In this document: one piece after another, positions 2,501 through 47,650 of the stretch
How positions within the stretch are numbered: the stretch's first letter is position 1
Layout: every line of letters begins with the position of its first letter
From: an uncultured Chloroflexia bacterium
GTDB taxonomy: Bacteria > Chloroflexota > Chloroflexia > Chloroflexales > Herpetosiphonaceae
DNA length: 64,000 nt
Direction of reading: 5' to 3'
NCBI GenBank assembly: GCA_963767035.1
Contig: CAVYBW010000001.1
Coordinates: 2,118,547 to 2,182,546 of the forward strand
Translations under genes and position numbers: made by a program
Notes under the pieces: model-generated
Told to the model about the DNA's origin: nothing
The model's database searches: none
The model's input: only the letters and a program-made list of their open reading frames with translations

Positions 2501-3092
2501 TAGGGTGTTGCGGTTGGCGTAAGGGTTGGAAGCACGGTTCCATCCACATCAAACCACTGGCGGGTTTCGAGATTGAACAATAGATGGGTAGTATTAGTGT
2601 ACAAATCCACAATTGGATAATCAACTGCATAAATTTTCATTGATCCTATGCGGGAAGGCGTATCATAATTTGCGCGTCCAGCATATAAAACCTGGATTCT
2701 GCCTTGCTGTGGATCAACACTCTGTGTACCAGTCTGAACAGCGACATTTCTACTTTCGCTAATCCAACAATTGCTTGGTATAAAATTGCGCCATGGCTCA
2801 CAAGAATTAGATAGCTCATCTGGGCGGATGGTTGGTGTTGGAGGGAAAGTAATACCTAGCACATAGGGCGTTGGCGATAGCGCAAGCTCGGTTGCAATGC
2901 TTGGGTATCAAACACAAATTTTTTCGCCAAGGTCGGGGTGAGTACAATGGCGGTAGCTGTATTGACGACAGCTCTTTGGCCACGTTGGCTAGCTGGTTGA
3001 ACTGCTGGCTGGGTACTAGTTCGGCCACAGGCGGCGAGTACCAGCACCAATCCAACACTTAGATTGATCGTTCGCTGAAGGGTACGCATCAA
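2500..3092 (-). CDS. Secreted lipoprotein of unknown function (apparent frameshift)
   Basis: N-terminus MMRTLQRTINLSVGLVLVLAACG is a lipoprotein signal peptide with lipobox Cys. Two overlapping ORFs (2856-3092 and 2500-2862) join in frame if the ccc run near 2866-2870 is cccc. Confidence 0.5.
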
Positions 3093-3364
3093 AAGTTACC
3101 TCAATCTCTCTGAAAAAGGCTTCGCTCGCTATCATTGCATACACGGCTAAACCTCTACAATGATACTAATGTGAAAGGAACCTGAGGTTATCAATGTTGA
3201 TCCACGAAGGGTTGAAACCGCGAAGGACGTTTTTGGCCACGAATTCCACTCGCACTTTATGCTCTAGGCTATATGTTCTATGTTCTTCATCCTTCTAACT
3301 TTTGATTTTATTTCGGTGCTATCATAGCAATCGGCTTTGTTTCAGAGGATTTGCCGTGAGTTCA

Positions 3365-4084
3365 ATGATTTTCTCCAACGTGATAACGGTGCTGCACGAA
3401 CCACAGCGCGAGGTCAATATTGGCTCAACGGTGCGGGCTTTGCTCAACACTGGTTTTCAACACCTGCGCTTAGTCCAACCAGTGGCCTACTCGGTCGAGC
3501 GGCTTGATGATATGGCCCATCGCAGTAGCCCGTTAGTTGAACAAATTGAAACCTATTCCAGCCTTGGCGAGGCATTAACCAATATTCCGTATGTGGTGGG
3601 GTTTAGTGGCCGCAGCCGTGGCAAACGTCGCGCTATTAGCTTGCCCGAATTTGCGCCAAGTTTAACCGCGTTGGCAGCTACAACACCCGTGGCCTTGGTG
3701 TTTGGCCGTGAAGATCGTGGGCTGGATAACGCTGCAATCGAGCAATGCAGCCAATTAATCAGCATTCCGGTTGATCCTAGCTATCCTTCGTTGAATTTGG
3801 CCGATGCTGTGCTGTTGGCCTTGTATACGCTGCGCGGCTTGGCAACTTCAGCCGAGCCATTACCTAACATCAATTTGGCCGACCAAGCAGCCCACGATTT
3901 ATTGCTCAATTTGCTCGATCAATTGTTGAGCAAGCTTAAATTTTCGCGCACTGCTGGCCAACAAGCGAGCGCTGTGCGCATGGTGCGCGACCTGCTGGCC
4001 CGCTCAACTCCAAGCCCTAGTGAAATCGCGCTGGTTACCGCCATGTGTCGCAAAATGCTAGCAGCCCTGAAGAATAATGAATGA
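3365..4084 (+). CDS. SpoU/TrmH-family RNA 2'-O-methyltransferase (TrmJ-like)
   Basis: Motifs VFGREDRGL and SLNLADAV match the SpoU methylase fold. The N-terminus MIFSNVITVLHEPQ...GSTVRAL resembles TrmJ. Upstream in-frame extension ignored. Confidence 0.7.
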   Translation: MIFSNVITVLHEPQREVNIGSTVRALLNTGFQHLRLVQPVAYSVERLDDMAHRSSPLVEQIETYSSLGEALTNIPYVVGFSGRSRGKRRAISLPEFAPSLTALAATTPVALVFGREDRGLDNAAIEQCSQLISIPVDPSYPSLNLADAVLLALYTLRGLATSAEPLPNINLADQAAHDLLLNLLDQLLSKLKFSRTAGQQASAVRMVRDLLARSTPSPSEIALVTAMCRKMLAALKNNE

Positions 4085-4096
4085 TTAGCTAGGTTC

Positions 4097-4143
4097 CCTC
4101 ACCCCAATCCCTCTCCCACTGACTGAACGCGGGCGAGGGGCGT
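4097..4143. repeat. Family A repeat, single copy
   Basis: ccctcaccccaatccctctcccactgactgaacgcgggcgaggggcg. Confidence 0.75.
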
Positions 4144-4235
4144 TTGATTCTGCATCAATCCCGACGTTTCTTGCAAAAAGCCGACAATTGCTCTACACTC
4201 ATTCGGCACGACGACTGCAATGAGGCACGCTGGTT

Positions 4236-6146
4236 ATGATCGACACAGACGCTCCAAGCGCGGCAATTTTCGCGATTCTGCAAAATGATAATGCTGTGGC
4301 GCAAGCACAGGAACTCCGCGCGTTTGGCGCAACCTGGCAAAGCCAAAACGCCGATCCACCAATGCTTACCAAGCTTGGCATCGAAGCCGCTACGCAAGCG
4401 CGGCTTGATCCCAGTGCGGTTGTGACCGATCTTTTGCTTGGTTACGCTGCGGCTCGCGAGGAGCAACGCACTCGCCATTGGCAAAATCACTTGATGCGCC
4501 GTGTGCAGCAGCTCGATGGCTTGCATCGAATTATTAGCGCCGCCAATTCAACCCTCGATATTGATGCCTCGCTGCAAACGGTGGTCGATACGGTCAGCGA
4601 TGTGATGCGGGTCGATGTTTGTTCGATTTATCTCTTCGATCAGCATCGGCGCATGCTGCGGTTGGTCGCGACCCGTGGCCTGAATCCCAAGGCAATTGGC
4701 ACGGTCGAGGTTGAAATTGGGGTGGGCGTAACTGGCTGGGCTGGCGAATTGGGCAAGCCGGTGGCGATTTTCGATGTGCGCAATGAGCCACGCTACCAGC
4801 TTGAGCCGCTGCTCGAAGAGTGGCAATTTCGCTCGCTTTTGGCAGTTCCAGTCATTTTATTTGCCAGCGAACGCCATCATATCGAAACACTCCAAGGCGT
4901 GATCACGGTGCAAAATCGTGATCCCCATGAATTTTCGCAAGAGCAAACCTCGTATCTCGAAGTGGTGGCGGGTGAAATTGCGCTCTCGATTGCCAATGCT
5001 CAAATGTATCAACAAACTGATGCCCGTTTGCACCAAAAAATCCGTGAATTAACCACCTTGCAGCGGGTAACGGCGGCTCTAGCATCGACTTTGGATGTTG
5101 ATAACTTGCTGCATTTGATTGTTGAGCAAGCTGTCAAAATTGCCGATGTTGATCGCACCGATATTTTCCAAGTCCGACCGAATAATAAAGTTAAAGTGCT
5201 GGCTTCGTATGGCCCTGGTCGCACATCCGGCGTAGAAGATATGATTGTGCAAGTGATTCGTGAGCATCGGGCGATTGCCGTGCCCAATGCCTACACCGAT
5301 GAACGTTGGTCGGGCGTGCAGGCGATTGCCTATCGCGAGGGCTTTCATTCATTGTTTGCCCTGCCGATGCGCACTGGCAATCGCATTATTGGGGCTTTGT
5401 GTTTTTATAGCTATGCGCCGCGCCATATTGAATATGAGCAAGTGCAATTGCTGACCACGTTTGCCGACGAAGGCGCAATCGCGATTGAAAATGCCCGCTT
5501 GTATGAAGAAACTCAGCGCAATCTGACGATCAAATCGACCTTGCTGCAAGAGATTCATCACCGTGTGCGAAACAATTTGCAAACGATCTCGGCCTTATTG
5601 CAAATGCAGGCGCGTCGTTTGAACGGTGAAACCAAGGGTCGGCAAGCGCTTGATGATAGTGTGCGCCGCATCCACGCGATTGCTGCAGTGCACAATTTAC
5701 TCAGCCACGATGGCGAAGGCCAAACTACAGTCCAAGATATTGCCAAGCAAATTGCCGAAAATATTCAGATGAGCCTGCCGACCGAAACGCCCGTCGAGTT
5801 TTTGATTACTGGCGATTCAGTTTCGGTTAATGCGCGGGCGGCCACTGTGCTGGCCATTGTGATCAACGAATTGGTGCATAATGCGATTGATCATGGCCTG
5901 AGCGCCGAGGGCGGCATTATTGGCATTGATGGCTGGATGGAAAATGAAGAGCAGGCTTGGGTGCAGGTGCGCGACGATGGCCCAATCCGGCCTGAGCCAA
6001 TCAAACGCCGCGTCAGCACTGGGCTTGGGCTTGGAATTATCGAAACCCTCGTCAACACCGACCTAGGTGGTAGCTTTGAGTTCAAACGCGAAACCGAATG
6101 GACGCGGGCATTAATCAAATTCGCCCCTGATGATTTAGATGATTGA
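4236..6146 (+). CDS. Sensor histidine kinase with tandem GAF domains (HisKA_2/HWE-type)
   Basis: Two GAF-like blocks, an H-box EIHHRVRNNLQTISALLQMQ typical of HisKA_2, and a C-terminal HATPase_c region (ELVHNAIDHG...GLGLGI). No response regulator is adjacent. Confidence 0.85.
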   Translation: MIDTDAPSAAIFAILQNDNAVAQAQELRAFGATWQSQNADPPMLTKLGIEAATQARLDPSAVVTDLLLGYAAAREEQRTRHWQNHLMRRVQQLDGLHRIISAANSTLDIDASLQTVVDTVSDVMRVDVCSIYLFDQHRRMLRLVATRGLNPKAIGTVEVEIGVGVTGWAGELGKPVAIFDVRNEPRYQLEPLLEEWQFRSLLAVPVILFASERHHIETLQGVITVQNRDPHEFSQEQTSYLEVVAGEIALSIANAQMYQQTDARLHQKIRELTTLQRVTAALASTLDVDNLLHLIVEQAVKIADVDRTDIFQVRPNNKVKVLASYGPGRTSGVEDMIVQVIREHRAIAVPNAYTDERWSGVQAIAYREGFHSLFALPMRTGNRIIGALCFYSYAPRHIEYEQVQLLTTFADEGAIAIENARLYEETQRNLTIKSTLLQEIHHRVRNNLQTISALLQMQARRLNGETKGRQALDDSVRRIHAIAAVHNLLSHDGEGQTTVQDIAKQIAENIQMSLPTETPVEFLITGDSVSVNARAATVLAIVINELVHNAIDHGLSAEGGIIGIDGWMENEEQAWVQVRDDGPIRPEPIKRRVSTGLGLGIIETLVNTDLGGSFEFKRETEWTRALIKFAPDDLDD

Positions 6147-6152
6147 GCCAGC

Positions 6153-7103
6153 ATGACCCAACTATCGTTAATTTGTACGGTTAAAAATGAAGCCGAGAGC
6201 ATTGCCGATTTGCTTGATTCGATGTTGGCCCAAAGTCGCCAGCCCGATGAAATTATCGTCAATGATTGTGGCTCGACTGATGCAACCGCTGCAATTGTGC
6301 AAAGTTATATTGAGCGTGGCGCACCAATTCGGCTGGTTCATGGTGGTTTTAATATCTCCTCTGGCCGCAATAATGCCATTTTGCATGCCCAAGGCCACTT
6401 AATTGCCTCGACCGATGCGGGCTTAGCGCTCGATCGCCAGTGGCTCGAACGAATTGTCGCACCACTGGAAGCCGATCAGGCTGATTTGGTGGCGGGGTTT
6501 TATCAAGCTGCGCCACGCAGCGATCTAGAAACCGCCATCGGCGCAACCAACTATCCACTAGCCGAAGAAGTTGATCCAAGCCAATTTTTGGCGGCGGGAC
6601 AATCGGTGGCGTTTCGCAAAATAGTGTGGAAGACCGTGGGCGGTTATCCCGAATGGCTCGACCATTGCGAAGATTTGGTGTTTGATCGGGCAGCAATTGC
6701 AGCGGGATTTCGCAGCACAGCAGTGCTTGAGGCCGTAGTACATTTTCAGCCGCGCTCCAATTTTCGGGCACTCTTTCGCCAATACTTCTTCTATGCTCGC
6801 GGCGATGGGGTTGCCAACCTCTGGCCGTTGCGTCACGCCATTCGCTATGCCACCTACCTTGGTTTGTTACTATTAATTGGCAGGTTGCCAAAGCATCCAT
6901 GGCTTGTGAGCTTATTAGGTTTCGGTATTGCTGGTTACACCCGCAAACCCTATCGGCGCTTGTGGCGCGCAACCAAAGGCTGGTCATGGTCACGTCGGAT
7001 CAAAGCCCTCAGTTTACCGCCATTAATTCGTGGAGTTGGCGATTTGGCGAAAATGATTGGCTACCCCATTGGCTGGCTCGTGCGTTTGGGCAAGCGAACA
7101 TAA
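6153..7103 (+). CDS. Family 2 glycosyltransferase
   Basis: N-terminal LSLICTVKNEAESIADLLDSMLAQ...DEIIVNDCGSTD is a GT2 (GT-A fold) signature with a DxD-like motif. Confidence 0.8.
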   Translation: MTQLSLICTVKNEAESIADLLDSMLAQSRQPDEIIVNDCGSTDATAAIVQSYIERGAPIRLVHGGFNISSGRNNAILHAQGHLIASTDAGLALDRQWLERIVAPLEADQADLVAGFYQAAPRSDLETAIGATNYPLAEEVDPSQFLAAGQSVAFRKIVWKTVGGYPEWLDHCEDLVFDRAAIAAGFRSTAVLEAVVHFQPRSNFRALFRQYFFYARGDGVANLWPLRHAIRYATYLGLLLLIGRLPKHPWLVSLLGFGIAGYTRKPYRRLWRATKGWSWSRRIKALSLPPLIRGVGDLAKMIGYPIGWLVRLGKRT

Positions 7104-7106
7104 TTG

Positions 7107-7247
7107 ATTCCCTCACTCCCAGCCCTCACCCACCGCACGCGGGCGAGGGGGAGCCAGCCCTAGTTTATCGATGCAATCATGCTAAACCACAATGTTAAAG
7201 CCCCGCTCCCACGGTGTGGGAGCGGATTGGAGTGAGGGAACGCACTC
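7107..7247. repeat. Family A palindromic repeat, inverted pair
   Basis: ccctcactcccagccctcaccc...gcgggcgaggggga and its reverse complement gggagcggattggagtgaggg. Confidence 0.75.
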
Positions 7248-7344
7248 AAAGCTATACGACCCAACAAATGGCCGATTGACAAGCCACAAGTACCTTTGAT
7301 AGCATCGAATTCTCTCAATTATTGAAGAAATAGGAGTGTTACTG

Positions 7345-9045: not shown

Positions 9046-9170
9046 ACAAAACTCCTAACACCAATATCATTAGTAGATAACCCAAGCTATAGCAGAAAAT
9101 GCACCACGCCAGCATTTTTCGGCTATACTACCAAGTACCTATAATTGAGCTTCGCCAAAGGAGGCTCCTA

Positions 9171-9972
9171 ATGTATCGTCAACGGAATTCTGGCTGTATT
9201 AGTAGTTTGTTTTTTCTGCTCATCGGAGCACTTGGAATTATGGTTGTACTTTCGATCACTGGCCTATTTGACCCAATCGGCATGTGGTTTAACCAGCCAC
9301 AAACCATCAATAATGCCCAAGGCCCAGCGATTGTGCAGCAATTACGTGCTCGTAACGAGTGGATCACCTTTTCATATCAGGCCGATCAAGTGATCGAAGC
9401 GCGCAATGAGGGCAATTTCTTCCAAGAATTACTCTATGGCGATCGGATTCTGCTGCAAGCACGGGGCGAGGTAGCAGCAGGCATTGATATGAGCGAGTTA
9501 CGCGATGACCAAATTGTCATTGACGGTAATTCGATTAAAAATAACCTTGCCACCAGCTCGCATTATCTACTCGCGTTTGGATAATCAGGCCACCCGAGTA
9601 TATGATCGCGAACGCGGCTGGCTGAGTCGTGGTGATATCAACTTAGAAAGCAATGCTCGTAGCTTTGCCGAACAATCGATTATCACCAGTGCATGTGAAA
9701 ATGGCGTGCTTGATCGCGCCGCAGTCGAAGCTCAAAAAAATGTCAGCGATTTACTGTCGGCTGTCGATTATACCAACGTGACAGTCGTAGTGAGCAAAGT
9801 TGGCGATTGTGCTGGCAGTGCCAATCAAATGGCAACCCAACAACCAAATGCGCTTGAGCCAACTGCTCCAGCAAATGTACCGACCAATAGCACCGCTCAA
9901 CCGAGCGTCGCGCCAACGCCAACCAGCAGTGGCGGCAGTCTTTCCGGAACGGCTGTTCCAATTAAACCTTAA
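9171..9972 (+). CDS. DUF4230-family membrane protein (apparent frameshift)
   Basis: RBS ggagg then MYRQRNSG, an N-terminal TM helix, and a DUF4230-like core (ITLPPARII motif). The frame changes at the aaaaa run 9536-9540; deleting one A restores a continuous protein. It has a Pro/Thr-rich C-terminal tail. Confidence 0.6.
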
Positions 9973-11575: not shown

Positions 11576-14462
11576 ATGAGGCGGCCTATGCACGATGTTG
11601 AGCGAATCCGTCAGAAAATTATCAATTTACAAGCCCGCCGTGCCCAAGAAACCGATCAAGATCTGATCGAAGCCCTCGATCAAATGATTGGACAACATCA
11701 ACTTCAACTGAGCCAAATCGCCCAACAAGCTGCCGCTATTGCCGAACCATCGCCGCCCGCTGCCGCCCAAGGCCAAGTCTATGGATCAAGCGTCATGACC
11801 AATCTTGGCCATGTCTGGATCAATCAGGTGTTTAATGCGCCGCTGAGCACTGGCGAACGCACCGACCAATTGATTCTGCACTACTTGGCGCACATCCAAG
11901 GCAACGCCGATCGCTTGGTGTTGGGCACTGATGTGCAAGATAGCGATCAAGAGCGCATGTCGTTGCAGCGGGTGTTTACCATGCTGCAGGCTGATTTTTA
12001 TGGGCCAATTGCAGGCGATGCCCTGTTGCAATCGTTGCTGTTGGGTAGCCCGCAGCCCCGCCCGCAATTGCAAGATTCAATTCTCAAGGCGCTCAATCAA
12101 ATTCAGCATCAACGGGCAGTCATATTGGGCGTGCCTGGTGGTGGTAAAACGACAGTGGTTTCGTATTTGGCCTCGGCCCAAGCAGCGGCGCTACTCGACC
12201 CTGCCAAAGCTGAGTTTTTGCATAGCCAAGGCTGGATGCATACCAAACTTGTGCCAGTGCGCGTGCGGCTCAAGCATGTTCCAGCCGCCAGCCAACCCAG
12301 AGCAACAAACCGCCGATGCATTTTGGGAAGTCGTCACCGAGCTGCAATTAGCCGGACGCTTTGGTCAACGCTCAGTCAACAGCGATGTTGGCTTTCAACG
12401 GATCGAGGTCGAGCGCCAACAACGCTTGCAAGATGCAATTGAAGAACTATTGATCAATGGTAATGGCTTGTTGTTGCTCGATGGGCTTGATGAAGTTCAG
12501 CCCGAACATCTGGCCGCAGTCAAACGCTGTATTGAGCATGCGCACCGAATGTTTCACAAAAGCCGGATTATTGTCACCTGTCGGGTGTTTGATTATGAAC
12601 ATCCGCTGCCGCCGCCGTTTCCCTCGCGCCAACTCTACGATTGGCCGACGATTCAACTGATGCCGTTTGATCTCACGGCGCAGCATGTTTATATCACCAA
12701 TTATTATAGCGAATTGGGACGCTTGCATGCCTCGCACGCCGATATTGTGAGCATTCGCAAAAAGCATGCCAAACTCCATGCCGAATTGATGAAATCGGGG
12801 ATGTTGCATGAACTGACTCGCACACCGTTGCTCTTGGCGCTGACCGTGCATGTCAATATGGTGCATACCGATTTGCCTGAGAGCGAAGGTAAATTGCTCC
12901 ACATTTGTATTGACGAATTGCTCAAACGCCGCGCCCCTGAAGCGATCGCGGTTTCGCTCGAGGATCTCTACGATTTGGTGGCCTTGTTGGGCTATTATGC
13001 CCATAGCCAAGAGGAAGTTCAGGGCAAATCGTTGCTCAGTTTGCAACAAATTAATACCGTGGTGCAGCGCTATTATAGCGATCGCTTTCCGCATCCCAAT
13101 CAAATTCATATGCTGGCACAGGCCGTTGGCAATGCAACGTTGCGTTTAATCAATAGCAATGGCTTGTTGCAAGAGGCCAGCAACAATCAACAAGATAATC
13201 CGCATTATGATTTTGCCCATCGTTTGTTTCAGCAATTTTTGGCCGGCATGTATTTGCTCAACCAAGAGCGCCACGATGAATGTATCGAACGCTCTGGCAG
13301 CGAACATTGGCGAGTTTGCTTGCACTACATGGCCAACTTTGCGCCCTATATTCAAAAGCAAAGCTTTCTTTTTGGCGTGATTCAAGATCTACTTGGCGGC
13401 ATGCCCGATGAACAAGTGCAAGGCTCGCATTTACTCTTGGCAATTGGCAAAGCCAAAGTCGCCAGTGCTGGGCGACGCAATTTGTGGCAACAGGCAGTTA
13501 ATCATCTTAAAAATATTGGTGGGCTGAGTGGTAGCAGTCGCGGAGTACGACGTTGGGCACCACCACGGATTGCCTTCCCCACCCGATTGCGGGCAGCCTT
13601 GGTTTTGGGGGCAATTGGCGATACGCGCTTTATTGGCGAAGATGGCGCGTTAATTTCGCTCACAGAACGGGTTGTTTGCATCAATGCTGGAAGCGTTGAG
13701 ATTGAAGATCCCCATGCGCGCCCTCAAACCTACAGCGTTGAGCGCTTTTGGATGAGCCGCTACTTATTGACCAACCTTGAGTACAGCCAATTTATTGCCG
13801 CTCGCGGCTACTTGGACGATCAGTGGTGGCAACATGACGATGCCCGCCATTGGCGACGGGGCGACCCGTCGTGGTTGCATGGCTTGCCACCATGGGCGGC
13901 CCCACGACGCTTGCCCGATTTATGGCATAACGAACGCTTTAATCACCCAACTCAGCCGATTGTGGGCATCAATTGGTACGAGGCCAATGCCTTTTGTGCT
14001 TGGCTAACGCTGCAACTCCGACCACAACTTGATACGCTTGGCCACAATTTGGTGGTGCGCTTGCCCAGCGAAGCTGAATGGCAGTTGGCGGCGAGCCAAC
14101 AGAGTAATCGCGAATATCCATGGGGCGATGAATGGCGCAATGATCACGCCAACACCAGCGAAAGCGAGCTTGAGCAGCCAATCCCGGTTGGCATGTTCCC
14201 GTATGGCACGTGGAGCGATGGGCCGTTGGATTTAGCGGGCAATGTTTGCGAATGGACAAATAGCGTTAATCGTGATCCCGAGCTTGATCCCCAAACAACC
14301 CGCAATCGGCGACTGCAACACCGTGATTTGGTCGTAGCTGTGCGTGGTGGCTCGTGGTTTCACAATCGCTATTTTGCGCGTTGCCGTTCGCGGCTGCATC
14401 ATCGCCCGTTTAGCCATGGCCCCAACATTGGCGTGCGCTTGATTATCGGCAATGCTGAATAA
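11576..14462 (+). CDS. STAND NTPase: NACHT domain plus helical middle region plus C-terminal FGE-sulfatase (SUMF1/FGS) domain (apparent frameshift)
   Basis: Walker A ILGVPGGGKTT followed by PVRVRLK, then Walker B LLLLDGLDEV, are the NACHT hallmarks. The C-terminal 280 aa carries formylglycine-generating-enzyme-family motifs (GINWYEANAFCAWL, RLPSEAEWQLAA, YPWGDEW, NVCEWTNS, VRGGSWF, GFRL-like GVRLI). The frame switch falls at the ccc run 12296-12298. Confidence 0.85.
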
Positions 14463-14472: not shown

Positions 14473-15084
14473 ATGCAACTTTCAATGTTAGAGCAAATGA
14501 GCACCCAAAGCCTGTATGATTTACGCGAGCAGCATCGCAAAAATTTAAATATTTTGGCGCAACAGGCTAGCCAATGGGGTGAAGGTAGCGTACCAGCAGA
14601 AACCCAAGCGCAAATCAGCCAAACCCAAGCCATGATCGAGCAGATTAATCTTGTGCTTGGGCAACGTGGCCATAGCAACCAAACCGACCCAGCCCGTGGC
14701 TCCTCGCTGCGCGATGTGCTTGAGCATTATCGCTATCAAGCCCCAGTTCACAATACTGGCACAGTTAATCTCACCAATAGTTCAGTTTATGGGGTGGTTA
14801 CTGGGGTCAATACTGGCACAATTACGCTCAATCAACAAACGGGGCAAGCAAGCTCAAGCCTGCAACAAGCAGCCCAAATGATTCAGCATTTGCTACCCAT
14901 GGCGCGTAGCCAACGTAGCCCGTTTCGCCATGCCCTGAGTGATGCCGAATTGACGATTGGCGATGCGCTCAAAGCCCAACGTAATGGCAGCGATCCGCAA
15001 CAGCTCGTGCAACAGGCGCGCGCTGATTTACAAGAGTTTGCCCAGTATCCAGAGATTAGTCAATTATTGGGGTTATTGCGCTAG
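14473..15084 (+). CDS. Small helical protein with central G/N/T-rich pseudo-repeat; candidate partner or effector of the upstream NACHT protein
   Basis: RBS aaggag 7 nt upstream of the ATG at 14473. It starts 11 nt after the NACHT gene's stop, so it is probably cotranscribed. It contains NTGTVNLTNSSVYGVVTGV / NTGTITLNQQTGQ pseudo-repeats. Confidence 0.6.
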   Translation: MQLSMLEQMSTQSLYDLREQHRKNLNILAQQASQWGEGSVPAETQAQISQTQAMIEQINLVLGQRGHSNQTDPARGSSLRDVLEHYRYQAPVHNTGTVNLTNSSVYGVVTGVNTGTITLNQQTGQASSSLQQAAQMIQHLLPMARSQRSPFRHALSDAELTIGDALKAQRNGSDPQQLVQQARADLQEFAQYPEISQLLGLLR

Positions 15085-16063: not shown

Positions 16064-16423
16064 TTAGGCACGAATCAGGCTGGTATCTTTGTTCTTTTCG
16101 CCTTCATCGATCAACATAATTGGAATCCCGTCTTCAATCGGGTAGCGGTAGCCATTACGAGGATTGAGCAACCATTCTTTGCCATTTGAATCGCTGTACA
16201 ATTCAACTGGTTTTTTATCAACCGGGCATGCCAAAATTTCTAGCAGCTCAGGGCTGATTGAACGTTTAGTTGTGCTAGCACTTACAGCCGTGGTGTTTGA
16301 GCCTAAATTGCTGACAGGAGCCAACTCAAATGCTTGATCAGCCTTATATTGTTTATAAACCCGATAAACCAAGGCTCCTGCACCAGCGATGACAGCGAAG
16401 CGCAACAATTTACCAAATTTCAT
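16064..16423 (-). CDS. Trm112-like (DUF343) protein with N-terminal TM helix
   Basis: C-terminal ELLEILACPV...YPIEDGIPIMLIDE matches the Trm112/UPF0434 fold signature. Confidence 0.55.
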   Translation of the reverse strand: MKFGKLLRFAVIAGAGALVYRVYKQYKADQAFELAPVSNLGSNTTAVSASTTKRSISPELLEILACPVDKKPVELYSDSNGKEWLLNPRNGYRYPIEDGIPIMLIDEGEKNKDTSLIRA

Positions 16424-17090
16424 GGATTCCTCCTAGCAACACGCAGCGCATTCAACGCTTGCTGCGCGGTTTTCACAAATTGAATTATTTTAGTGAGATC
16501 TTTGATTCCAGCGGTTTCGATGCCGCTGCTGACATCAACGCCCCACGGGCCAACTGCTTGGATCGCTTGCGCCACATTGTTTGGTTCAAGCCCACCAGCC
16601 AATAATAATGGCGTTGTTTGGGCCAATTGCTGGGCTGCCGACCAATCGGCCAACACGCCAGCCCCGCCATATGAACCTGGCACATGGGCATCGACCACCA
16701 AGCGCAGGCGTTGATCGCGTTGGGCTATATCATACCATGCTTGCTCGCTATGGTGATTGGTTAACGCACAGCTTTAAGCATTGGTAGCTGAATTTCTTCG
16801 ATGATTGTTGGCGATTCATCGCCGCTAAGTTGGACCAGATCGAGGCCAACCTGCTGGGCAACTGCGTTAATCTTGGTTGCTGGTGCATTAACAAATACGC
16901 CCACCAACTGACAAGCTGTGCCGGTTGCACGTACAGCTTGAACAATTTCTGTGGCTAAAGCAGCTTCAATTTGGCGTTTGCTTGGCGCGAAGATCATGCC
17001 AATTAGGTCTGCGCCTGCCGAAGCCGCTGTAACAGCGGCTTCGACACTACCTACACCACAGATTTTTATGGCCTGCTGACCCCAACTCAC
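16420..17090 (-). CDS. trpF: Phosphoribosylanthranilate isomerase (apparent frameshift)
   Basis: N-terminal half KICGVGSVEAAVTAASAGADLIGMIF...GLDLVQLSGDE and C-terminal half PLLLAGGLEPNNVAQAI...GVDVSSGIE are in different frames. They join within 16760-16775. Confidence 0.8.
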
Positions 17091-20073: not shown

Positions 20074-21007
20074 ATGCAACAGCCCTATAAAGTAGCGCAA
20101 CCGCAATTATCAAAAATGCCCAAATATTTGTTTCTGACCATGCGCCCCAAGCAGTGGGTCAAGAATATTTTTGTGTTTGCAGGCTTAATTTTTGCCAACG
20201 ATATGCTCTTGACCAACCCACAGAGCTTAGTACGGGTACTCGCAACCTTTGGCTTGTGGTGTTTAATCGCTAGCTCAATTTATTTAATTAACGATCTGGT
20301 CGATGTTGAAAAGGATCGCGATCATCCTAAAAAGCGTTATCGCCCGTTGGCTAGCGGCCATCTGGCCCCAAGCAGCGCGATTATCGCGACGTTGATCTTT
20401 TTGGGGATTGGCTTGCCCTTGGCCTACATGCTAAGCCGTGGGGTGGCAATTATTCTGGCTGTGTATGTGGTGATGCAATTAGCCTATTCATTTCGGCTCA
20501 AGCATGTGGTGATTCTCGATGTGTTTATCATTGCCGCAGGCTTTGTGTTTCGCACGGTCTCAGGGGCAGTGGTTTTACGAATTGATATTTCGCCATGGTC
20601 GTTAAATTTGTACAGGGCTGTTATCGCTGTTTTTGGCGCTCGCCAAACGCCGCCACGAGTTAGTTTTGCTCGAAAGTGGCGCGGGCAGCCATCGCCGCGT
20701 GCTCGAAGAATACTCAACCGAGCTGCTGCAAGAGATGATTTCGCTGATTACCGCCAGCACCTTGATTGCCTATATTTTGTATACGCTCAACCCAACAAAT
20801 CCCCATGTGCCAACCAGTCCTTTCCCGCTGATGTTAATCACCGTGCCATTTGTAATCTATGGAATTTTCCGCTACCTGTATTTGGTTTATAAAAAAGATG
20901 AAGGTGGCAGCCCAGAAGAATTATTGCTTAAAGATTTGCCAATGTTAGCCGATATTGTGCTTTGGGGCATAACGGTTGTGGCAATTATGTATATCTTTCG
21001 CCAATAG
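20074..21007 (+). CDS. UbiA-family decaprenyl-phosphate phosphoribosyltransferase-like (apparent frameshift)
   Basis: RPKQWVKNIFVFAGLIFA and NDLVDVEKDRDHPKKRYRPLASG are UbiA superfamily motifs of the DPPR-synthase type. The frame shifts at aaa 20604-20606; deleting one A gives ...SPWSLICTGLLSLFLALAKRRHE.... Confidence 0.65.
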
Positions 21008-27952: not shown

Positions 27953-30638
27953 ATGAAAATTCTCGACACGCGCGTCTATCGTGGGCCTAATTATTGGTTG
28001 TATAAGCCAGCAATCAACATGACGATTGATCTCGAAGAACTTGAGGCTTATCCAACCGATTTGTTGGGTGATTTTGTTGATCGGTTGTTGGCGCTCGTGC
28101 CAAGTCTCGATGATCATCATTGTTCGTTGGGGCGACCAGGTGGCTTTGTGGAGCGGCTGCGCGATGGCACATGGCTTGGCCATGTGATGGAGCACTTGGC
28201 CTTAGAGTTGCAGTGTTTGGCCGGAACCTATGTGACCCAAGGTAAAACCCGTGGCGCTGACAAAACTGGCCAATATTTCGTTATTTTCCAGTATGGCCAA
28301 GAGGATGTCGGCATCGAGGCAGCCAACTTGGCGCTGCGTTTGATTCAATTTTTGCTGCCTGAAGAATTGCCCTCAGCCATGCCCGCCGAACAACGTGCCA
28401 CCTTCGACCTGGTGCGCGAGAAGGAAGATTTGGCACGCATGGCGGTGCGCTTGGCCTTTGGCCCTTCGACCGCTTCGTTGGTCAAAGCTGCCGAGGAGCG
28501 TGGGATTCCATGGTTGCGCTTGAACGAACATTCGTTGGTTCAATTTGGCCATGGCAAATATCAAAAACGCATTCAAGCCACAATCACCTCGCAAACCAGC
28601 CATATTGGGGTTGAAATTGCCCAAGATAAGCAATTGACCAATAAATTGCTTGAGGATGCTGGTTTGCCTGTGCCTCGCCAGCGGGTGGTGCGTTCGGCTG
28701 AGGGCGCTGTCCAAGCCGCTCGTCGCTTACGCTATCCTTTGGTAGTCAAGCCCTTAGATGCCTCGCATGGTCGCGGCATTTCAATTGGCCTCACTACTGA
28801 GGCCGAAGTTGAGGTGGCCTTTGCCCAAGCTCAAGAGCATCGCTCATATGTGATTGTTGAAGAATTAGTGCCCGGCAGCGATCATCGGGTCTTGGTGATC
28901 AATGGCGAGGTAGTTGCAGTCTCAGAGCGTGTGCCAGGCCATGTGGTTGGCGATGGCCAACGCACGGTCGCCGAATTGGTCGAAATCGTCAATAGCGATC
29001 CACGGCGTGGAGTCGGGCCACGAAAATGTCTTGACCAGACTTGAGATTGATCATCAAGCTGAGCGCTGTATGGAAAAAGCTGGCGTAACCTTGGAAACAG
29101 TGCTCGATGCTGGCCAATTGCTCTATCTGCGCTCAACTGGTAACCTCTCAACTGGTGGCACAGCGATCGATCGCACCGATATGATTCACTATGAAAATGC
29201 CCAGATCGCAATTCGCGCCGCCAAAATTGTGGGCTTGGATGTGGCAGGGATCGACTTTATCATTCCTGATATTAGCCGTCCGGTTAGTGAAGTTGGCGGC
29301 GGAATTGTTGAAATTAATGCAGCGCCAGGCTTTCGCATGCACGTTGCCCCATCCGAGGGCACGCCACGCGATGCTGCTGGACCAGTCATCGATATGCTGT
29401 TTCCCGCTGGCACACCCAGCCGGATTCCCTTGGCAGCATTAACTGGCACCAACGGCAAAACCACTACCGCGCGGATGACCGCGCATATTCTCAAAATGGC
29501 GGGCTACCACGTTGGCATGACCAGCACCGATGGGATTTATATCGATGGCGAGCGGGTGCTGCGCGGCGATATGACAGGGCCGAAATCAGCACGCATGGTG
29601 CTACGCGATCCAACAGTTGATGCAGCGGTGCTCGAAACAGCACGCGGCGGGATTTTGCGCGAAGGTTTGGGCTATGATGAAGTTGATGTCGGAGCAATTC
29701 TCAACATCAGCGCCGATCACCTTGGCCTGCGCGGCATTGACACACTTGAAGAAATGGCCAAAGTTAAATCGCTGATCATCGAAGTAATTAAGCGTGATGG
29801 TTGGGCTGTTTTGAATGCCGATGATCCGCTGGTAGTCAAAATGATCAAACGCACGCGTGCTAAGCCCTTCTACTTCAGTTTCGACCCAGCCAATTCGTTG
29901 GTGCGCGAACAAGTGCAAAATGGTGGACGGGCAATTGTGGTCGAAAAAGGTGTCAATGGCGATATGGTGACGCTCTATGACAAGGGTCGGCATATTCCGC
30001 TCTTGTGGACGCACTTAATTCCAGCGACCTTGGAAGGCCGAGCTAAATTCAATATTGCCAATGCGATGGCGGCGGCGGCAATGGCCTATAGTTTGGGCAT
30101 TAGCATCGAAAATATTCGCCAAGGCTTGCGTACTTTCACAACTTCGTTCTACCAAACCCCAGGCCGCCTGAATGTCTTTGATGAACATCCGTTCCGCGTT
30201 ATTTTGGATTATGGCCATAATCCGGCGGCGGTTGGTAATTTGGTCGATGTGGTACGGCAATTGCCACGCGAAGGCAAAGCGATCTGTGTGATCTCCGTGC
30301 CCGGCGATCGGCGCGAGGTCGATGCCCGTGAGATTGGGCGTTTGCTTGGCTCAGGAGTATTCGATCAGATCATTATCAAAGAAGATACCAGCTTGCGTGG
30401 ACGCAAAGAGGGCGAAATGCCTGGCTACATTCGAGAGGGCTTAATCGAGGCTGGATTTGATGAAAGCAATATTCGCTACAATCGCCAAGAGCGCGAGGCC
30501 ATTGCCATGGCCTTGGATTCAGCCCAGCGCGGCGATTTGCTGATGATATTTGCCGATGAACCAACCGATGCCTGGAAACAGATCATCTATTGGGGCAAGC
30601 CCCGCGATGCTCAAAACAAAGTTGGTCGGGTAATTTAG
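27953..30638 (+). CDS. cphA: Cyanophycin synthetase (apparent frameshift)
   Basis: N-terminal MKILDTRVYRGPNYW is the CphA signature, followed by ATP-grasp and Mur-ligase-like halves. RBS ggagg. The frame shifts at ggg 29015-29017; deleting one G gives ...DPRRGVGHENVLTRLEID.... Confidence 0.9.
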
Positions 30639-32580: not shown

Positions 32581-32668
32581 AGACGATTCTCCTTCAATGG
32601 CTCAATCGTACTCAAGCATTGACAGAACGTCAATAATTCAGTTCACAACCCTTATATTAGGAGGCATT

Positions 32669-38184: not shown

Positions 38185-38949
38185 ATGCCTATATCTGATG
38201 ATGAACGCCCAATACAAATTACAATTACAGACTACAAACAACCAGATTTATTTAATATACAACGCTTAATGTGTCCTCATTGTGGCTTAATTTTCGATTT
38301 TCAGTTTCCATTGGATGATGAACCATTAGGATGGCCTAGTTTATCTGACGAACCTTATTATTCCGAAACATATTTTGATGATTTAGGAAATCCTTATGAG
38401 ATTATCGAAAAAACTCCTAATATTACTAAAAACTGTAGAAGATGCGGTCTGGAGATAAAAGAAGATACTCTTATATTAATTAATATTTCCAAATTAATAA
38501 ATTTTGATGATATTAGAACAATAATAAAAGATGGCGAAGGAGAAAATTTAGAGTTAAAATTACAAATGATAGAAAAAATAAAATTAGCAAAAATCATAGG
38601 ATCATTTGCGAATAAAAGAGGGGGAACGATTATCATTGGAGTAGATGATAAAAGTAGAGAAATCGAAGGGATAGAGAACCTATCGAATCATACTCAAAAA
38701 GAAACAATTATAGCTGAAGTAAAAAATGCCCAATCAAATATACAACCACAACCACAATATCACCTGAATTTTATTGAAGATAATAACAAAATAATTTTAG
38801 TTATCACCATACCTGTTTCAAGATACATATGTTATGTACGAGGAAAAGTTCCAATAAGAGAAGGTCATTCTTCGGAATCGACAAATGATCCAGCCAAAAT
38901 AGCTAATTTAAGGGAGTATCGCAAACAAACTTATAATTTTGATGAATAA
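38185..38949 (+). CDS. Zn-ribbon plus AlbA_2 (Schlafen-like 'putative DNA-binding', PF04326-type) domain protein
   Basis: CPHCG...CRRCG zinc-ribbon pairs in the N-terminal 100 aa. Then GENLELK...SFANKRGGTIIIGVDDKSREIEGI...KIILVITIPVS...YVRGKVPIREGHSSE, matching the AlbA_2 core. The coding DNA is about 30% GC against about 50% genome background. Confidence 0.75.
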   Translation: MPISDDERPIQITITDYKQPDLFNIQRLMCPHCGLIFDFQFPLDDEPLGWPSLSDEPYYSETYFDDLGNPYEIIEKTPNITKNCRRCGLEIKEDTLILINISKLINFDDIRTIIKDGEGENLELKLQMIEKIKLAKIIGSFANKRGGTIIIGVDDKSREIEGIENLSNHTQKETIIAEVKNAQSNIQPQPQYHLNFIEDNNKIILVITIPVSRYICYVRGKVPIREGHSSESTNDPAKIANLREYRKQTYNFDE

Positions 38950-40512: not shown

Positions 40513-41416
40513 AAGCATATGGCCTTATTTAATTATTGAGCTACTACATCGCGCCGCAAACTAATCATTTCGTGTGCTAAACTAAAGCCAACTCGTTCGT
40601 ATAAACCACGGGCAGTTGGATTATCTTCATCAACCACTAATTCGAGTTCTTGAATTGCTGGCACGCTAAAGATCATGCTAAACAATGCTGCATAATCTTG
40701 GTTGCAATTCCACGGCCACGTGCAGCAGGCGCAACGCCCACAAATTCAATCCCTGCTTCGGCAAATTCTGGTTGTCGTTCAGTATGAATATAGCCAAGTA
40801 ATTGCTCGCCGTCACGCATAATAAATACTTGCCGGTCAGCATTTATGCGCTCAAGAATTTCGCTACCACTGTAGTAGGTTTTTGGAAATAATTGATCATG
40901 TAATTCACAGAACGCTGCGTGTAATTCAGCTGGCAATACTTCAACATCACCAGCAGTTACATGGTCTGTTAATTGTGAACGTTTGTAACTTAGGATTGCA
41001 TGGGTTTTGCGCTGATAAAATTGCTGGCGTGCCGCCCAATCGCGCACAAATTGGTTTTGCACATTGCAAAACATATCAATCATGGTGACGTGTGGCTTAA
41101 GCTCTGGCAGCAATTCGGCAAATAAGGCATCGGCAAGCGCAAAGCGCTCAGCACCCAAGGCAATTGGTCCCCACAAAAAAGCGCGGCCAGTATCCGAAAT
41201 TTGCTCCAAACCAATCAAGCCTTGGAATTGTTGATCATCAGTTGCCAAAGCAAATTGTTGCTCGATCGGAGATTCAAGCTCACGCCATGTTTGGGCAATT
41301 TGGTCGGCATGCGGGCCAGCAAACCCCAAGTGTGTGCTAGGATCATGCTGAAATTGGGCCATAAACGCGGCGGCTTGGTCAATTTGGGCTGGTTGCATAC
41401 GGCTAATCGTTGACAT
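40513..41416 (-). CDS. GNAT-family acetyltransferase with N-terminal extension (apparent frameshift)
   Basis: Motif A VGVAPAARGRGIATKIM in ORF 40673-41416. The GNAT C-terminus ...ARGLYERVGF continues in another frame down to 40513. The junction is at the aaa run 40680-40682 (ttt on the coding strand). Confidence 0.6.
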
Positions 41417-42685: not shown

Positions 42686-42868
42686 GTTAATTCTGGTGGT
42701 TCTCCCACGCCTTGTGGTGAATCGAGACGCTGCGTTAATGCTCAGTTTCTACTAGCCATGCTTGCTCTGCACCTCTGCGTTAAATTTTGACTTTTGCTTT
42801 CTGCCTTCTTCTCTCTCTGCGCCTCTGCGTTAAAACCTCAGTCCCCGCTCCTATGCTCTATGTTCTGA

Positions 42869-43900: not shown

Positions 43901-43903
43901 GAA

Positions 43904-45052
43904 TTATCGCTCGCGGAGATACAGCGCTATATCGGTACTATGATTATTTTGCGGATCGATATAGGCCTTCGGAATAAAACCAACGCGCTCGAAACCTGCT
44001 TGCTCGTAGGCCGCAGGCAATGCCGGATGATCAAGTGGCACATGCCCAAGCAACTGGTTGGCAAAATGGTTCGATGGTAATTGGCGCAGCATTTCATTCA
44101 ATAAAATCGAAGCTTGATCCATATGCCCTGCTGCGAGATAACAATCGACCAAAAGCTGATGCTGCTGGTAGTAGGGGTTTGGCCATGGATAGACCGGCGG
44201 CATAATACTGCCCCAGCCAACAATCGCCCCGCTGGCTGCCGTCAGACCAGTTAATACCGCCACATCGCCTTCTTGCTGCTCGAACGCCGGAAAGAAATCT
44301 TCGGCCCCGATATTGGCATCACCCAGCATTTGCAGCCCATAATGGCGCACAATCCGATTATCAGGCGCATTGAACAACGATAATAACAACGGCACATCGG
44401 CCCGATCCGATGATCGCATAAAGACTGCCGTGCTGGGGGCAAACAAATGCTTGAGAAAGTTTTCGGGCGAATCGCCGTCGCTAATCCGCCAGGCAATCCG
44501 ATTGCCCGAGCGGCTACTTTCGCTCTCATTAATCGTCACAAAATGATACTGCTCATAGAACGACATGGCACTATCATTATGTTCAGTGCTAATAATCAGC
44601 GCTTGCCCGCCACTGGCCTCAAAATCATTAATCGCCAACTTCAATAACTTATTAGCCAAGCCACGGCGACGATAGGGCTCAGCCGTATAAACCCGATGAA
44701 TCGAACCCAATTGTGGACAGAACTTTGAACGACACAGCAGCATAGCGCTAACAGGCCGTCCCTGCACTTGGGCCAAATACCAAACATCTTGGCTAAAGCG
44801 CAGCCCAACAAGGCGTAGGTGCATATCGAATGACCAACGCCATGCCACCGCCGGATCTTCACCCCATCGGTGATAAAGCTCCTCAAGTGGTTGGGCAAAT
44901 TCAGAAGCAAGCGGTTGGATGCGCGAGAGGACTGCCTCAGTTCCTGCACCCAGAGCAATCCGCGCAACTTCTTCGTACATCAGCGACCCTCCAAGCTCGA
45001 TAGCTCGTGTGTAGTAGGTCGCATCATACTCTAGGCCTCGCTGCTTGTCCAC
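43904..45052 (-). CDS. GNAT-family acetyltransferase (tandem GNAT folds)
   Basis: RRRGLANKLLKLAINDFE...FYEQYHF motif A, with a second GNAT-like half. Confidence 0.6.
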   Translation of the reverse strand: MDKQRGLEYDATYYTRAIELGGSLMYEEVARIALGAGTEAVLSRIQPLASEFAQPLEELYHRWGEDPAVAWRWSFDMHLRLVGLRFSQDVWYLAQVQGRPVSAMLLCRSKFCPQLGSIHRVYTAEPYRRRGLANKLLKLAINDFEASGGQALIISTEHNDSAMSFYEQYHFVTINESESSRSGNRIAWRISDGDSPENFLKHLFAPSTAVFMRSSDRADVPLLLSLFNAPDNRIVRHYGLQMLGDANIGAEDFFPAFEQQEGDVAVLTGLTAASGAIVGWGSIMPPVYPWPNPYYQQHQLLVDCYLAAGHMDQASILLNEMLRQLPSNHFANQLLGHVPLDHPALPAAYEQAGFERVGFIPKAYIDPQNNHSTDIALYLRER

Positions 45053-45096
45053 TACAGCCCATAGCGTAGGGTTAATTAAGGACTGTGGTGAAACGT

Positions 45097-45515
45097 TCCC
45101 TCACCCCCCAGCCCCCTCTCCCACTGAACGCGGGCGAGGTGGAGTATCTGTGCATTACCGACCCATCATGGAAAAACCACGCAGTTAAAGCCCCTCGTAT
45201 GTAGCATGGGCGAGGGGCAGCATCTGTGCAGTGGGAGAGAAGGGCTTCCACGGGTTGGTTTTAAAGATTCCGACGCTGCGAACCACGCCATGGCCGGTTT
45301 ATCAGCAGACGCTTGCTGACCAATAAACGTCCTTGAGGGGGTGCAGGAGGATTAAGGCACCCTGCGTCTCCTGCCTTGAGGCGGGACGGAAGGGTGGTGA
45401 AACCGATCCATGCCGATAGCCAATGATTCGAAACCTACAAAACCCTACCCTTGTAAAGTGAAGCCCTTCGCCTGCGCCACGGGAGCGGGGTTGGGGGTGA
45501 GGGGGTGTTAAAACC
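45097..45515. repeat. Large mosaic repeat cluster (families A and B plus the aaaaccctacccttgta module)
   Basis: A direct family A copy at 45097-45140, partial copies near 45190-45245, an inverted family A copy at 45460-45510, an inverted family B copy at 45340-45410, and the aaaaccctacccttgta module at 45440-45460, which is also seen at 8794-8810. Confidence 0.75.
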
Positions 45516-45712
45516 TACTCATTTAGTAGTTACGGGAACTTATTTCAATCACTGACGTTATTCCTGCATAGGCATATGCGGTTTATTTGATATGCCTTGC
45601 AGTTAATCACTGGTTTGGGTGGAGTGCGAGAGGAATTTGGTTGATCATGGTCGACACCAGGCGCAGATTCTTCACGCAGTATTCGGGACATACTGCCTTT
45701 GGAGGTACCTAG

Positions 45713-47650
45713 TGGTTCATCGTTTTCTTCGTTGTAGCCTGCTCCTTGCACTTATCGTTGGAGCCATCGCCAACCATCACGCCACTCCGCTGGCCGCCCA
45801 AAATTCGCAGCCTAGCCCCAGCCAATTAGCTATTACTGGCCAACTCGGCGGTGATAGCTCCACCATGGTCGTTGCCGATACCTCGGCCTATGTTGGCATC
45901 GGGCCACGGGTTGTAACCTATGATCTGAGTAATCCTAATCAACCACGTTTGGGCAACCAAAGCGCGCTCTTGCCAGCCACCGTCCAAGATTTGGCACTTG
46001 GCGAGGGCTATTTGTACGCTGCTTTGGGCTATGGCCGCGAGCATGGCTTAGCAACTTTTTCATTAGCCACGCCATTGACCCCAACCTTGGTGAGCTTTTA
46101 TCCGCTCGAATTATCAGCAATGGCCGTCTTCAGCTATCAAAACTATGTCTATGTCCAAGTTGATGATGGCTTGAAGGTGTTTGATCTGAGCAATCCCAGC
46201 CAACCACAGCTGGTCAATCATATTAACCAATATGGCATCGCCAATGTCACGATTCAAGGCGATCATGCGATTTTTAAATGTGCAATCATGGCTTTCTGGC
46301 TTCGATAGTCTCAACATCGTCGATTTGAGCAGCCCAATGACACCAACACTCAAAGGCTCAATCACGCTGGGCGATATTTTAGATGTTGAAATTGCTGGCG
46401 ATTATGCTTATGTCAATACCCAAATGGGCTTGCGCATCGTTGATATAACAGATGGCGGCAACCCAAGCATTATCAGCCAAACCGACGATGTTGTGGGCCT
46501 GCAATTGGTAGTAAACGACACTACCCTAGCCACGATTGGCCTCGATTATGCCTTGCATACGTGGGATATTACCAATCCACTCACGCCAACCGAAATTGCC
46601 GCTAGCAGCGAAACTATTCTAGGCTGGCCGACAGCGCTGATTGCCAACCAAAATATTGGCTATGTTTTGACCCTTTCTGGCCAAATCAGCGTTTTCGATT
46701 GGAGCAACCGTCAAGATCCCAATGGCCTTGGCGTTACCGAAACCCCTGGTTGCAAAGAAAATGTGGCCTTGCAAGTTGTCGGCGATTATGCCTATGTCGC
46801 CGATTGGGGTCGCGGCTTGTGTATCGTCGATTTGAGCAATCCAAGCCAGCCAACGGTGGTTGGTCGGTTTGACCTCACAACCGATCGCAATGCGGTCAGC
46901 GATATCGCAGTCCAAGGCTCATTGGTGTATATGGTCGATTGGAGCCATGGCATTTATGTGATCGATGTCAGCGACCCAACCGCACCAAGCCAAGTTAGTT
47001 TCTTTGCAACCGCTGGCTTTCCAGCATCAATCGCGGTCAATGGCCCAATGGTCTATGTCGGTGAGTCAATCAACGACCAAGGCGTTGGGGGCAGTGTGCG
47101 GATTTTTGATCTGAGCGATTTGGATAATCCGGTTGAGCACAGCCAGTTCTACACCAGCAAAGTTGCTCAACTCGCCGTGGTCGATCAAACGCTGTATGTC
47201 GCTGATAACGAAGGCGGCCTGCGAATTCTCGATGTCAGCAACCCTGACAATATTCAAATGCTCGGCCAATATGCCGATACATGGTTTGCGATGGATTTGG
47301 CAATTCAAGATCACTATGTCTACTTGGCGACCACCGCTGGTTTAGAAATTGTCGATGTCAGCGACTCGACCCAGCCAACACCTGTAGGCCGCTTGGGTAG
47401 CACAATGGTTGATGGCGTAGTTGTTGCAGGCGATAGCGCCTATATTGGCGTCGATGCTGGCATTCAACAGATCGACATCAGCCAGCCAAGCACACCGCAA
47501 ACGGTTGCGACAATCCTGCTGGCCCGCGATTCATGGATTCTTCCAGCGCTGCATGAGCAGCAAATTGTGGCTTTGAGTTATCATGGTGGTGGCATGTTCG
47601 TGATTAACGCACACTATCAAGTATTTTTGCCTGCAATAACCAAAAACTAA
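45713..47650 (+). CDS. LVIVD-repeat beta-propeller protein, secreted (apparent frameshift)
   Basis: Signal peptide, then many LVIVD repeat units (YAYVADWGRGLCIVDLSNPSQP, LYVADNEGGLRILDVSNPDN, etc.). The frame shift is at ttttt/aaa 46271-46278. Confidence 0.75.

Follow-up and report, generated by a model that had tools for sequence, protein, structure and literature searches.

Nine frameshifted genes in a Herpetosiphon assembly are probably residual consensus indel errors

Consensus errors described in published assemblies are typically isolated 1-bp indels that split conserved genes and are found by comparison with close relatives. Their insertions lie partly outside homopolymers, and they occur at a rate on the order of 10^-4 per base. 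In nanopore consensus sequence, methylation motifs are the foremost source of error and homopolymers the second (Wick et al. 2019, PMC6591954). Both short and long homopolymers are hit, insertions are also seen where there is no run, and nanopore assemblies err mostly towards deletions (PMC12007338). Many genes with one or a few lesions are also found in genomes with young pseudogenes, such as that of Sodalis glossinidius (PMC3091646), which otherwise looks normal and contains IS elements.

The stretch of DNA analysed here, a window of 64,000 nt, shares features with each of these systems. Its lesions resemble published consensus errors in being isolated, in splitting conserved genes, in lying partly outside homopolymers and in their rate. 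Unlike those errors, they are dominated by insertions, spare long homopolymers and include one 10-bp lesion. Four of the nine lie near the palindromic tetranucleotide CATG, which would recall the methylation-motif errors of Wick et al. if CATG is methylated in this organism; the published errors, however, are at Dcm sites. In published work, 4-mer- and motif-linked errors are mostly substitutions, whereas the lesions here are indels. The window resembles Sodalis in its many genes with a single lesion, its normal appearance and the presence of an IS element, but the nonsense mutations, larger deletions, gene-internal IS elements and relaxed constraint of young-pseudogene genomes are absent from it. 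In contrast to host-restricted or bottlenecked bacteria, the Herpetosiphon relatives are free-living and lack such lesions.

Nine disrupted genes and a non-coding leader

The source of the window is a species of Herpetosiphon (Chloroflexota) whose DNA is ~87% identical to that of sequenced species. In a protein collection, its intact proteins lie on one unannotated contig of 3,688,802 bp, from NCBI and ENA. A scan of GTDB species representatives returned five other Herpetosiphon species, with Era identity of 91–93%, and no same-species comparator. Protein cluster members are at most ~98–99% identical and all come from other species, with no second genome of the window's species among them, and a search of JGI metagenomes with a pattern across the cphA lesion, with or without the indel, gave no match. 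We placed each lesion by DNA alignment with two to five Herpetosiphon relatives, and scanned the same regions of seven relatives (five named species and two other assemblies) as a control.

The initial annotation described eight genes interrupted by single-base indels in homopolymer runs. All eight are split over two frames, with Pfam matches that run on across the pieces, and repair of one lesion restores a family-typical protein, with full-length matches to DUF4230, PRAI, UbiA and Acetyltransf_1. The lesion is a single-base indel in seven of them; that in the lipoprotein gene is a 10-bp deletion. At every site the orthologues are unshifted. Together with a ninth gene, this makes nine frameshifted genes among ~54, or about one in six (Table 1).

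Table 1. Features with lesions in the window, with the lesions as placed by alignment
Feature	Position	Strand	Lesion
Lipoprotein gene (lipobox LAAC)	2500–3089	-	10-bp deletion between 2900 and 2901
DUF4230 gene	9099–9972	+	Extra A, 9536–9540 (A5; A4 or AACA in five relatives)
P-loop NTPase and FGE-sulfatase-domain gene ("NACHT")	11576–14462	+	Extra base within 12279–12283 (TT or CC pair)
trpF (phosphoribosylanthranilate isomerase)	16420–17090	-	One base lost, 16762–16764 (AAA to AA)
Decaprenyl-phosphate phosphoribosyltransferase (DPPR synthase, UbiA family)	20074–21007	+	Extra A, 20604–20606 (GA to AAA)
cphA (cyanophycin synthetase)	27953–30638	+	Extra G, 29015–29017 (GG in relatives, GGG here)
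GNAT acetyltransferase (294 aa in relatives)	40533–41416	-	One base lost, 40673/40674 (CC to C)
LVIVD-repeat beta-propeller protein (645 aa in relatives)	45712–47650	+	Extra base, 46269–46270
GNAT_acetyltran-family gene	53782–54565	-	Extra base, 53918–53920
Non-coding leader	47891	+	Window-only 1-bp deletion (AA to A)

Four lesions, those in the DUF4230 gene, trpF, the DPPR synthase gene and cphA, lie where they were originally placed. The two pieces of the DUF4230 product match positions 1–66 and 64–148 of the Pfam profile, and the repaired product matches 1–148. For trpF, the plus strand reads TTAACG in the window and TTAAACG in four relatives; the pieces match PRAI at 1–99 and 124–192, and the repaired protein at 2–192. 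The DPPR synthase site reads GTTAAATTTG in the window and GTT-GATTTG in four relatives. Over its C-terminal 133 aa, this enzyme is 96–100% identical to relatives, and the repaired protein matches UbiA at 5–237 and passes the NCBIfam cut-offs. In cphA, the insertion is the sole indel across 2685 nt; Pfam finds the N-terminal and ATP-grasp domains in the first piece and the RimK and Mur ligase domains in the second.

Alignment with relatives moves the other four lesions. Those in the NTPase/FGE, GNAT and LVIVD genes lie 1–17 nt from the sites first proposed, in contexts of 1–2 nt. The CCC at 12296–12298 in the NTPase/FGE gene and the AAA at 40680–40682 in the GNAT gene, which had been taken as the damaged runs, are also present in relatives, and the T5 run in the LVIVD gene is equally long in relatives (the site reads GCGATTTTT in the window and GC-ATTTTT in relatives). 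The most parsimonious placement of the LVIVD insertion is an extra G at 46270. The GNAT site reads GATCATG on the plus strand of the window and ATCCATG in three relatives, and the repaired protein matches Acetyltransf_1 at 4–116. The name "NACHT" does not hold for the NTPase/FGE gene, for which Pfam gives a weak AAA_22 match and a strong FGE-sulfatase domain. In the lipoprotein gene, the stretch at 2866–2870 is identical in H. llansteffanensis, where the gene is intact; at the deletion, relatives carry a sequence like TTCTCGCTAC, with CTT..CTT microhomology on its flanks.

The ninth frameshift, in the GNAT_acetyltran-family gene, had gone unnoticed. The true C-terminal 45 aa, 93% identical to relatives, are encoded in a different frame, but the shifted ORF remains open as far as 53768 and the gene therefore looks intact. 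Thus, checks of ORF length overlook a frameshift if the shifted frame stays open. The single-base deletion at 47891 lies in a leader of ~160 nt in which three species otherwise barely differ, and is probably an error of the same kind outside a gene. Across the whole window, no known RNA family reached its gathering score; a sub-threshold match to narK lies near the conserved leader (E=0.28, 17.8 bits, gathering score 43.2).

Several other candidate frameshifts were rejected. The ORF pairs 21011/21409, 23980/25377, 57549/58597 and 9505/9800 each consist of two distinct genes, whose domains are complete. The candidate at 14452 comes from an indel in a spacer, and the gene at 14477–15084 is intact; frame changes near 32645, 45707, 47826 and 56564 precede start codons. 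Apparent frameshift gaps in L013 are compound in-frame gaps within a repeat. Genes at 23.1–26.7 kb are intact when compared with L056, and those at 21.0–23.9 kb have full-length Pfam matches.

Sequence context of the lesions

The lesion pattern appears to differ from the classic long-homopolymer pattern to which it had been attributed. The runs involved are 1–5 nt long, only one of 141 coding runs of at least 5 nt carries a lesion, and homopolymer compression was not seen, the run-length spectrum of the window being that of its relatives. What stands of the proposed location in homopolymer runs is a modest enrichment for short runs (sum-of-run-length test, P=0.02 under the most parsimonious placements), and two insertions lie outside any run. 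The criterion of a nearby 3-nt run, used to place the lesions initially, is undiscriminating because the zone in which two ORFs overlap nearly always holds one. Among the single-base lesions, six of eight are insertions, opposite to the usual nanopore tendency towards deletions; this direction and the sparing of long homopolymers speak against error.

CATG lies within 3 nt of four of the nine sites (family-wise P ~0.04), and three of the four share ATCATG. This marginal association may reflect a motif-linked error signature. Substitutions near CATG showed no significant anomaly (P=0.064).

Sequencing error or gene decay

Nine coding frameshifts in the window compare with no genuine frameshift in the seven relatives over the same regions. 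Each disrupted gene has exactly one lesion, and the spectrum consists of eight single-base indels and the 10-bp deletion. The halves of the disrupted genes are mostly ~80–100% identical to relatives at the protein level; the exceptions, at 66–72%, are the L010 lipoprotein match and the C-terminal piece of the GNAT acetyltransferase. Lesions fall at 24–84% of gene length (mean 0.49), with no trend towards the 3ʹ end. No in-frame stop created by substitution was found in any of the genes compared, and the lesioned genes of the window show none of the marks of genuine pseudogenes, namely nonsense codons, gene-internal IS elements or decay after a first lesion. An IS element in the window is lineage-specific and intergenic.

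We measured constraint from window-specific substitutions, counted only at codons on which the relatives agree. In intact genes, 1442 of these changes are synonymous and 161 non-synonymous (pN/pS 0.032). Downstream of the frameshifts there are 306 synonymous and 44 non-synonymous changes (pN/pS 0.039; Fisher P=0.18 relative to intact genes), where neutrality predicts ~1117 non-synonymous changes. Neutral evolution accounts for ~0.8% of the terminal branch, and for ~2.2% at the upper 95% bound. Hence, the lesions are either younger than ~2% of the window's branch or not real; the test bounds their age, and is compatible with a very recent genome-wide relaxation.

Together, these independent but indirect tests suggest, with a probability of about 80%, that the nine lesions are residual consensus indel errors of the assembly. 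The lesions are private to the window, consist only of indels, leave constraint unrelaxed and are evenly placed, and they lie on a 3.69-Mb unannotated contig. The assembly is highly contiguous, and this, with the missing annotation, indicates that the source platform was probably long-read. We infer that they are errors and did not arise by very recent mutation, in agreement with the initial reading of artefacts, except that the 10-bp deletion may be real.

There is a lesser but appreciable probability that the single-base indels are errors while the 10-bp deletion is genuine and inactivates a dispensable, fast-evolving lipoprotein gene with paralogues. A deletion of this length is atypical for consensus errors, and a 10-bp loss flanked by CTT..CTT is typical of real slippage deletions. 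The gene is also the least conserved of the nine (76–84% nucleotide identity), H. llansteffanensis has a tandem paralogue, and in strain NSE202 the gene is only a 110-aa ORF. However, both flanks of the deletion still translate close to the relatives' sequence, the gene has too few informative codons for a measure of constraint, and long-read assemblers and polishers occasionally lose several bases.

We consider it improbable that most or all lesions are real and record a recent burst of inactivation, caused by a mutator or by relaxed selection after a bottleneck or change of lifestyle, so that about one-sixth of the genes are very young pseudogenes. Replication slippage would equally be expected to give the modest enrichment for short runs, a 10-bp deletion with 3-bp microhomology fits real mutation, a lineage-specific IS element has inserted close by, and an age below ~2% of the terminal branch agrees with the pN/pS values. 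Yet 9 of ~54 genes would have been hit exactly once each, without nonsense codons, gene-internal IS elements or relaxed constraint, and in mid-gene in the biosynthetic genes trpF and cphA and that for DPPR synthase. Bacterial indel mutation is usually biased to deletion, contrary to the excess of insertions here. The five sister species, all free-living, have no such lesions, and the prior for consensus indels in an unannotated contig of this size is high. If the indels were real, a free-living predatory Herpetosiphon would very recently have inactivated about one-sixth of its genes almost purely by 1-bp indels, which we regard as slightly less probable still. The inactivated genes would include trpF, cphA and that for a cell-envelope prenyl-phosphoribosyl transferase, a sign either that a mutator episode had recently taken place or that genome reduction had only just begun in Chloroflexota. 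Programmed ribosomal frameshifting, transcriptional slippage or phase variation has nothing in its favour but short runs at some sites, and can practically be dismissed given unshifted orthologues in up to five species at every site, a longest run of 5 nt, no shared slippery heptamer, shifts of both +1 and -1 in nine unrelated genes, and the 10-bp deletion.

What is the significance of residual consensus errors in this genome? The consensus of a long-read Herpetosiphon assembly would keep small indel errors at ~1.6 per 10 kb. Each would shift the frame of its gene, leading gene callers to split the gene in two or, where the shifted frame stays open, to call a wrong C-terminus. Annotation of the assembly would consequently miss or mis-call ~15–20% of genes, including those for cyanophycin synthetase, trpF and DPPR synthase. 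Should the CATG association extend over the whole genome, it would represent a motif-linked error mode worth correcting. The finding is a practical one, for annotation, rather than a biological novelty. Interpretation of apparent pseudogenes and pathway gaps in this assembly should wait until it has been polished. In the organism itself the nine genes are most probably intact, and they should be read through at the nine sites.

Split genes and their lesions

All eight genes that the initial annotation had described as interrupted are divided into two open reading frames (ORFs). Pfam matches continue from the first ORF into the next, and translated searches using the ORFs of Herpetosiphon relatives switch frame at each site. 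As had been proposed, a single repair per gene restores family-typical proteins: with one lesion repaired in each, the Pfam profiles are matched over positions 1-148 of 148 for DUF4230, 2-192 of 193 for PRAI (trpF), 5-237 of 250 for UbiA (DPPR synthase) and 4-116 of 116 for Acetyltransf_1 (GNAT). Furthermore, the repaired UbiA-family protein scores above two NCBIfam equivalog cut-offs for decaprenyl-phosphate phosphoribosyltransferase, and the repaired cyanophycin synthetase (cphA) matches intact 894-aa proteins of H. aurantiacus, H. gulosus and Chloroflexota MAGs with 95-96% identity. The label “NACHT” for one gene has no Pfam support; the protein instead combines a P-loop NTPase with an FGE-sulfatase domain at its C-terminus (NTPase/FGE).

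We placed the lesions by DNA alignment against the relatives (Table). Four of the eight sites proposed earlier were correct, three (NTPase/FGE, GNAT and LVIVD) were displaced by 1-17 nt, and the lipoprotein gene carries a lesion of another type. A GNAT_acetyltran-family gene adds a ninth frameshift; it appears intact because the shifted ORF is open as far as 53768. Its final 45 residues lie in a different frame, in which they are 93% identical to the relatives, and repair extends Pfam coverage from profile positions 115-207 to 115-236. The claim of broken genes is therefore borne out in part, with nine genes rather than eight and with half of its details right.

Several other suspect ORF overlaps proved to be distinct genes or to reflect changes ahead of start codons. 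Four window-only indels in spacers near ribosome binding sites could be natural intergenic variation or additional consensus errors.

Lesions and other features of the window
Feature	Position	Description	Site in initial annotation
Lipoprotein	2900/2901	10-bp deletion flanked by CTT..CTT; codons for V-A-x-S lost	2866-2870, incorrect; identical in H. llansteffanensis, where the gene is intact
DUF4230	9536-9540	A4 to A5	correct
NTPase/FGE	12279-12283	extra base, TT or CC pair	CCC 12296-12298, incorrect; conserved in relatives
trpF	16762-16764	AAA to AA	correct
DPPR synthase	20604-20606	one extra A (AAA in window, GA in relatives)	correct
cphA	29015-29017	GG to GGG; sole indel in 2685 nt	correct
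GNAT	40673/40674	CC to C	AAA 40680-40682, incorrect; conserved in relatives
LVIVD	46270	GCGATTTTT in window, GC-ATTTTT in relatives; extra base therefore most parsimoniously G	incorrect; T5 run equally long in relatives
GNAT_acetyltran	53782-54565, minus	one extra base at 53918-53920	
Window-only indels	7342, 9993, 45708, 56563	1 bp, immediately upstream of start codons	
Low-G+C segment	38100-40300	39% G+C	
Schlafen/AlbA_2-domain ORF	38185-38949	inside low-G+C segment	
Leader	47760-47925	~160 nt, non-coding, upstream of S4/RluA-type pseudouridine synthase gene (ATG 47916); 1-bp deletion private to window at 47891	
Pseudouridine synthase tail	48864-49865	long, C-terminal, Arg/Gly-rich; 61% G+C	
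IS element	60466-61482	~1 kb; 17-nt terminal inverted repeats; DDE_Tnp_1 transposase ORF 60563-61468	
“tRNA-Gly(GCC)”	63197-63288	92-nt ARAGORN call; overlaps ORF 62833-63291	

The window and its relatives

Syntenic DNA (handles of the aligned pieces in brackets) was available from H. aurantiacus DSM 785 (L001, L014), strain NSE202 (L010), H. llansteffanensis (L011, L055), H. giganteus (L012, L054), H. geysericola (L013), a JGI MAG (L007) and a Logan contig (L056); all pieces pooled, it covers ~58 of the 64 kb. Nucleotide identity is ~74-92% by segment and ~83-88% across long collinear blocks, a level that indicates a further Herpetosiphon species. A second sequence of this species was not found among GTDB species representatives, protein-cluster members or, for the stretch spanning the cphA site, JGI metagenomes.

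Overall G+C is 51%. The Schlafen/AlbA_2-domain ORF is absent from the corresponding place in H. aurantiacus, so this segment was possibly acquired horizontally. The IS element occupies the exact junction of two convergent glycosyltransferase genes, which directly adjoin one another in H. giganteus and H. llansteffanensis. Since Rfam places no tRNA there at the gathering score, the tRNA-Gly call is probably false. Apart from the deletion at 47891, the pseudouridine synthase leader is almost invariant across three species, with flanks only ~84% identical. No Rfam family matches it, and shuffled sequence is predicted to fold equally well. The tail of the same protein consists of 36-, 69- and 81-nt tandem repeats whose copy number varies between species, and the protein has 827 aa in the window versus 767 and 792 aa in relatives.

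Sequence context of the lesions

Judged by comparison with the relatives, the number of frameshifts exceeds chance. No genuine coding frameshift was found when each relative was scanned as target by the same procedure; the hits were mirrors of the window's own shifts or compound in-frame gaps.

Are the indels a feature of homopolymers, as first proposed? About 48% of coding bases sit in runs of at least 2 nt, so an arbitrary indel is often “in a run”. When each lesion is placed most parsimoniously, a sum-of-run-length test puts the lesions in runs weakly above chance (P = 0.02). However, two insertions lie outside any run, only one of the 141 coding runs of at least 5 nt carries a lesion, and the run-length spectrum equals that of the relatives.

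Four of the nine frameshift sites (12279-12283, 40673, 46269-46270 and 53918-53920) lie within 3 nt of a CATG, three of them sharing ATCATG; at a fifth site (20604) the distance is 7 nt. CATG ranks first of 136 tetranucleotides near lesions, with a family-wise P of ~0.04 for a pattern noticed post hoc. Substitutions close to CATG show no significant anomaly. This proximity could stem from errors linked to the motif or from chance, and is a lead rather than a result.

Origin of the lesions

An assembly artefact is the best explanation (probability about 0.8). The preference of the initial annotation for artefact over pseudogenes is thus supported in part, though not by way of a long-homopolymer signature. 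We counted window-specific substitutions in codons identical across all relatives. Intact genes have 1442 synonymous and 161 non-synonymous changes (pN/pS 0.032); downstream of the frameshifts, in the repaired frame, there are 306 and 44 (pN/pS 0.039; Fisher P = 0.18 versus intact genes), whereas ~1117 non-synonymous changes would be expected under neutrality. The unconstrained share of the window's own branch would thus be ~2% at most, which bounds the age of the lesions; they may still exist in the DNA. They affect 9 of ~54 genes, one each, at points between 24% and 84% along the gene (mean 0.49).

The intact proteins of the window map, in a protein collection, to one contig of 3,688,802 bp of NCBI and ENA origin, and this unannotated 3.69-Mb source contig points to a long-read assembly. 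In such assemblies, indel errors fragment genes, including short-run errors and insertions outside runs (PMC12007338), and nanopore consensus errors cluster at methylation motifs, then homopolymers (PMC6591954). With insertions making up six of the eight single-base lesions, what we see differs from the usual nanopore bias. The label “classic homopolymer” should be dropped.

If selection had been relaxed across the genome very recently, the picture would be similar, except that the nonsense codons are missing: no compared gene has a stop codon made by substitution. The 10-bp lipoprotein deletion, between its CTT..CTT flanks, could well be real, although this is the less likely reading.

There is no new biological feature here. 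Gene calls should be read through the lesion sites, and pseudogene calls in this assembly should be distrusted until the reads are checked.
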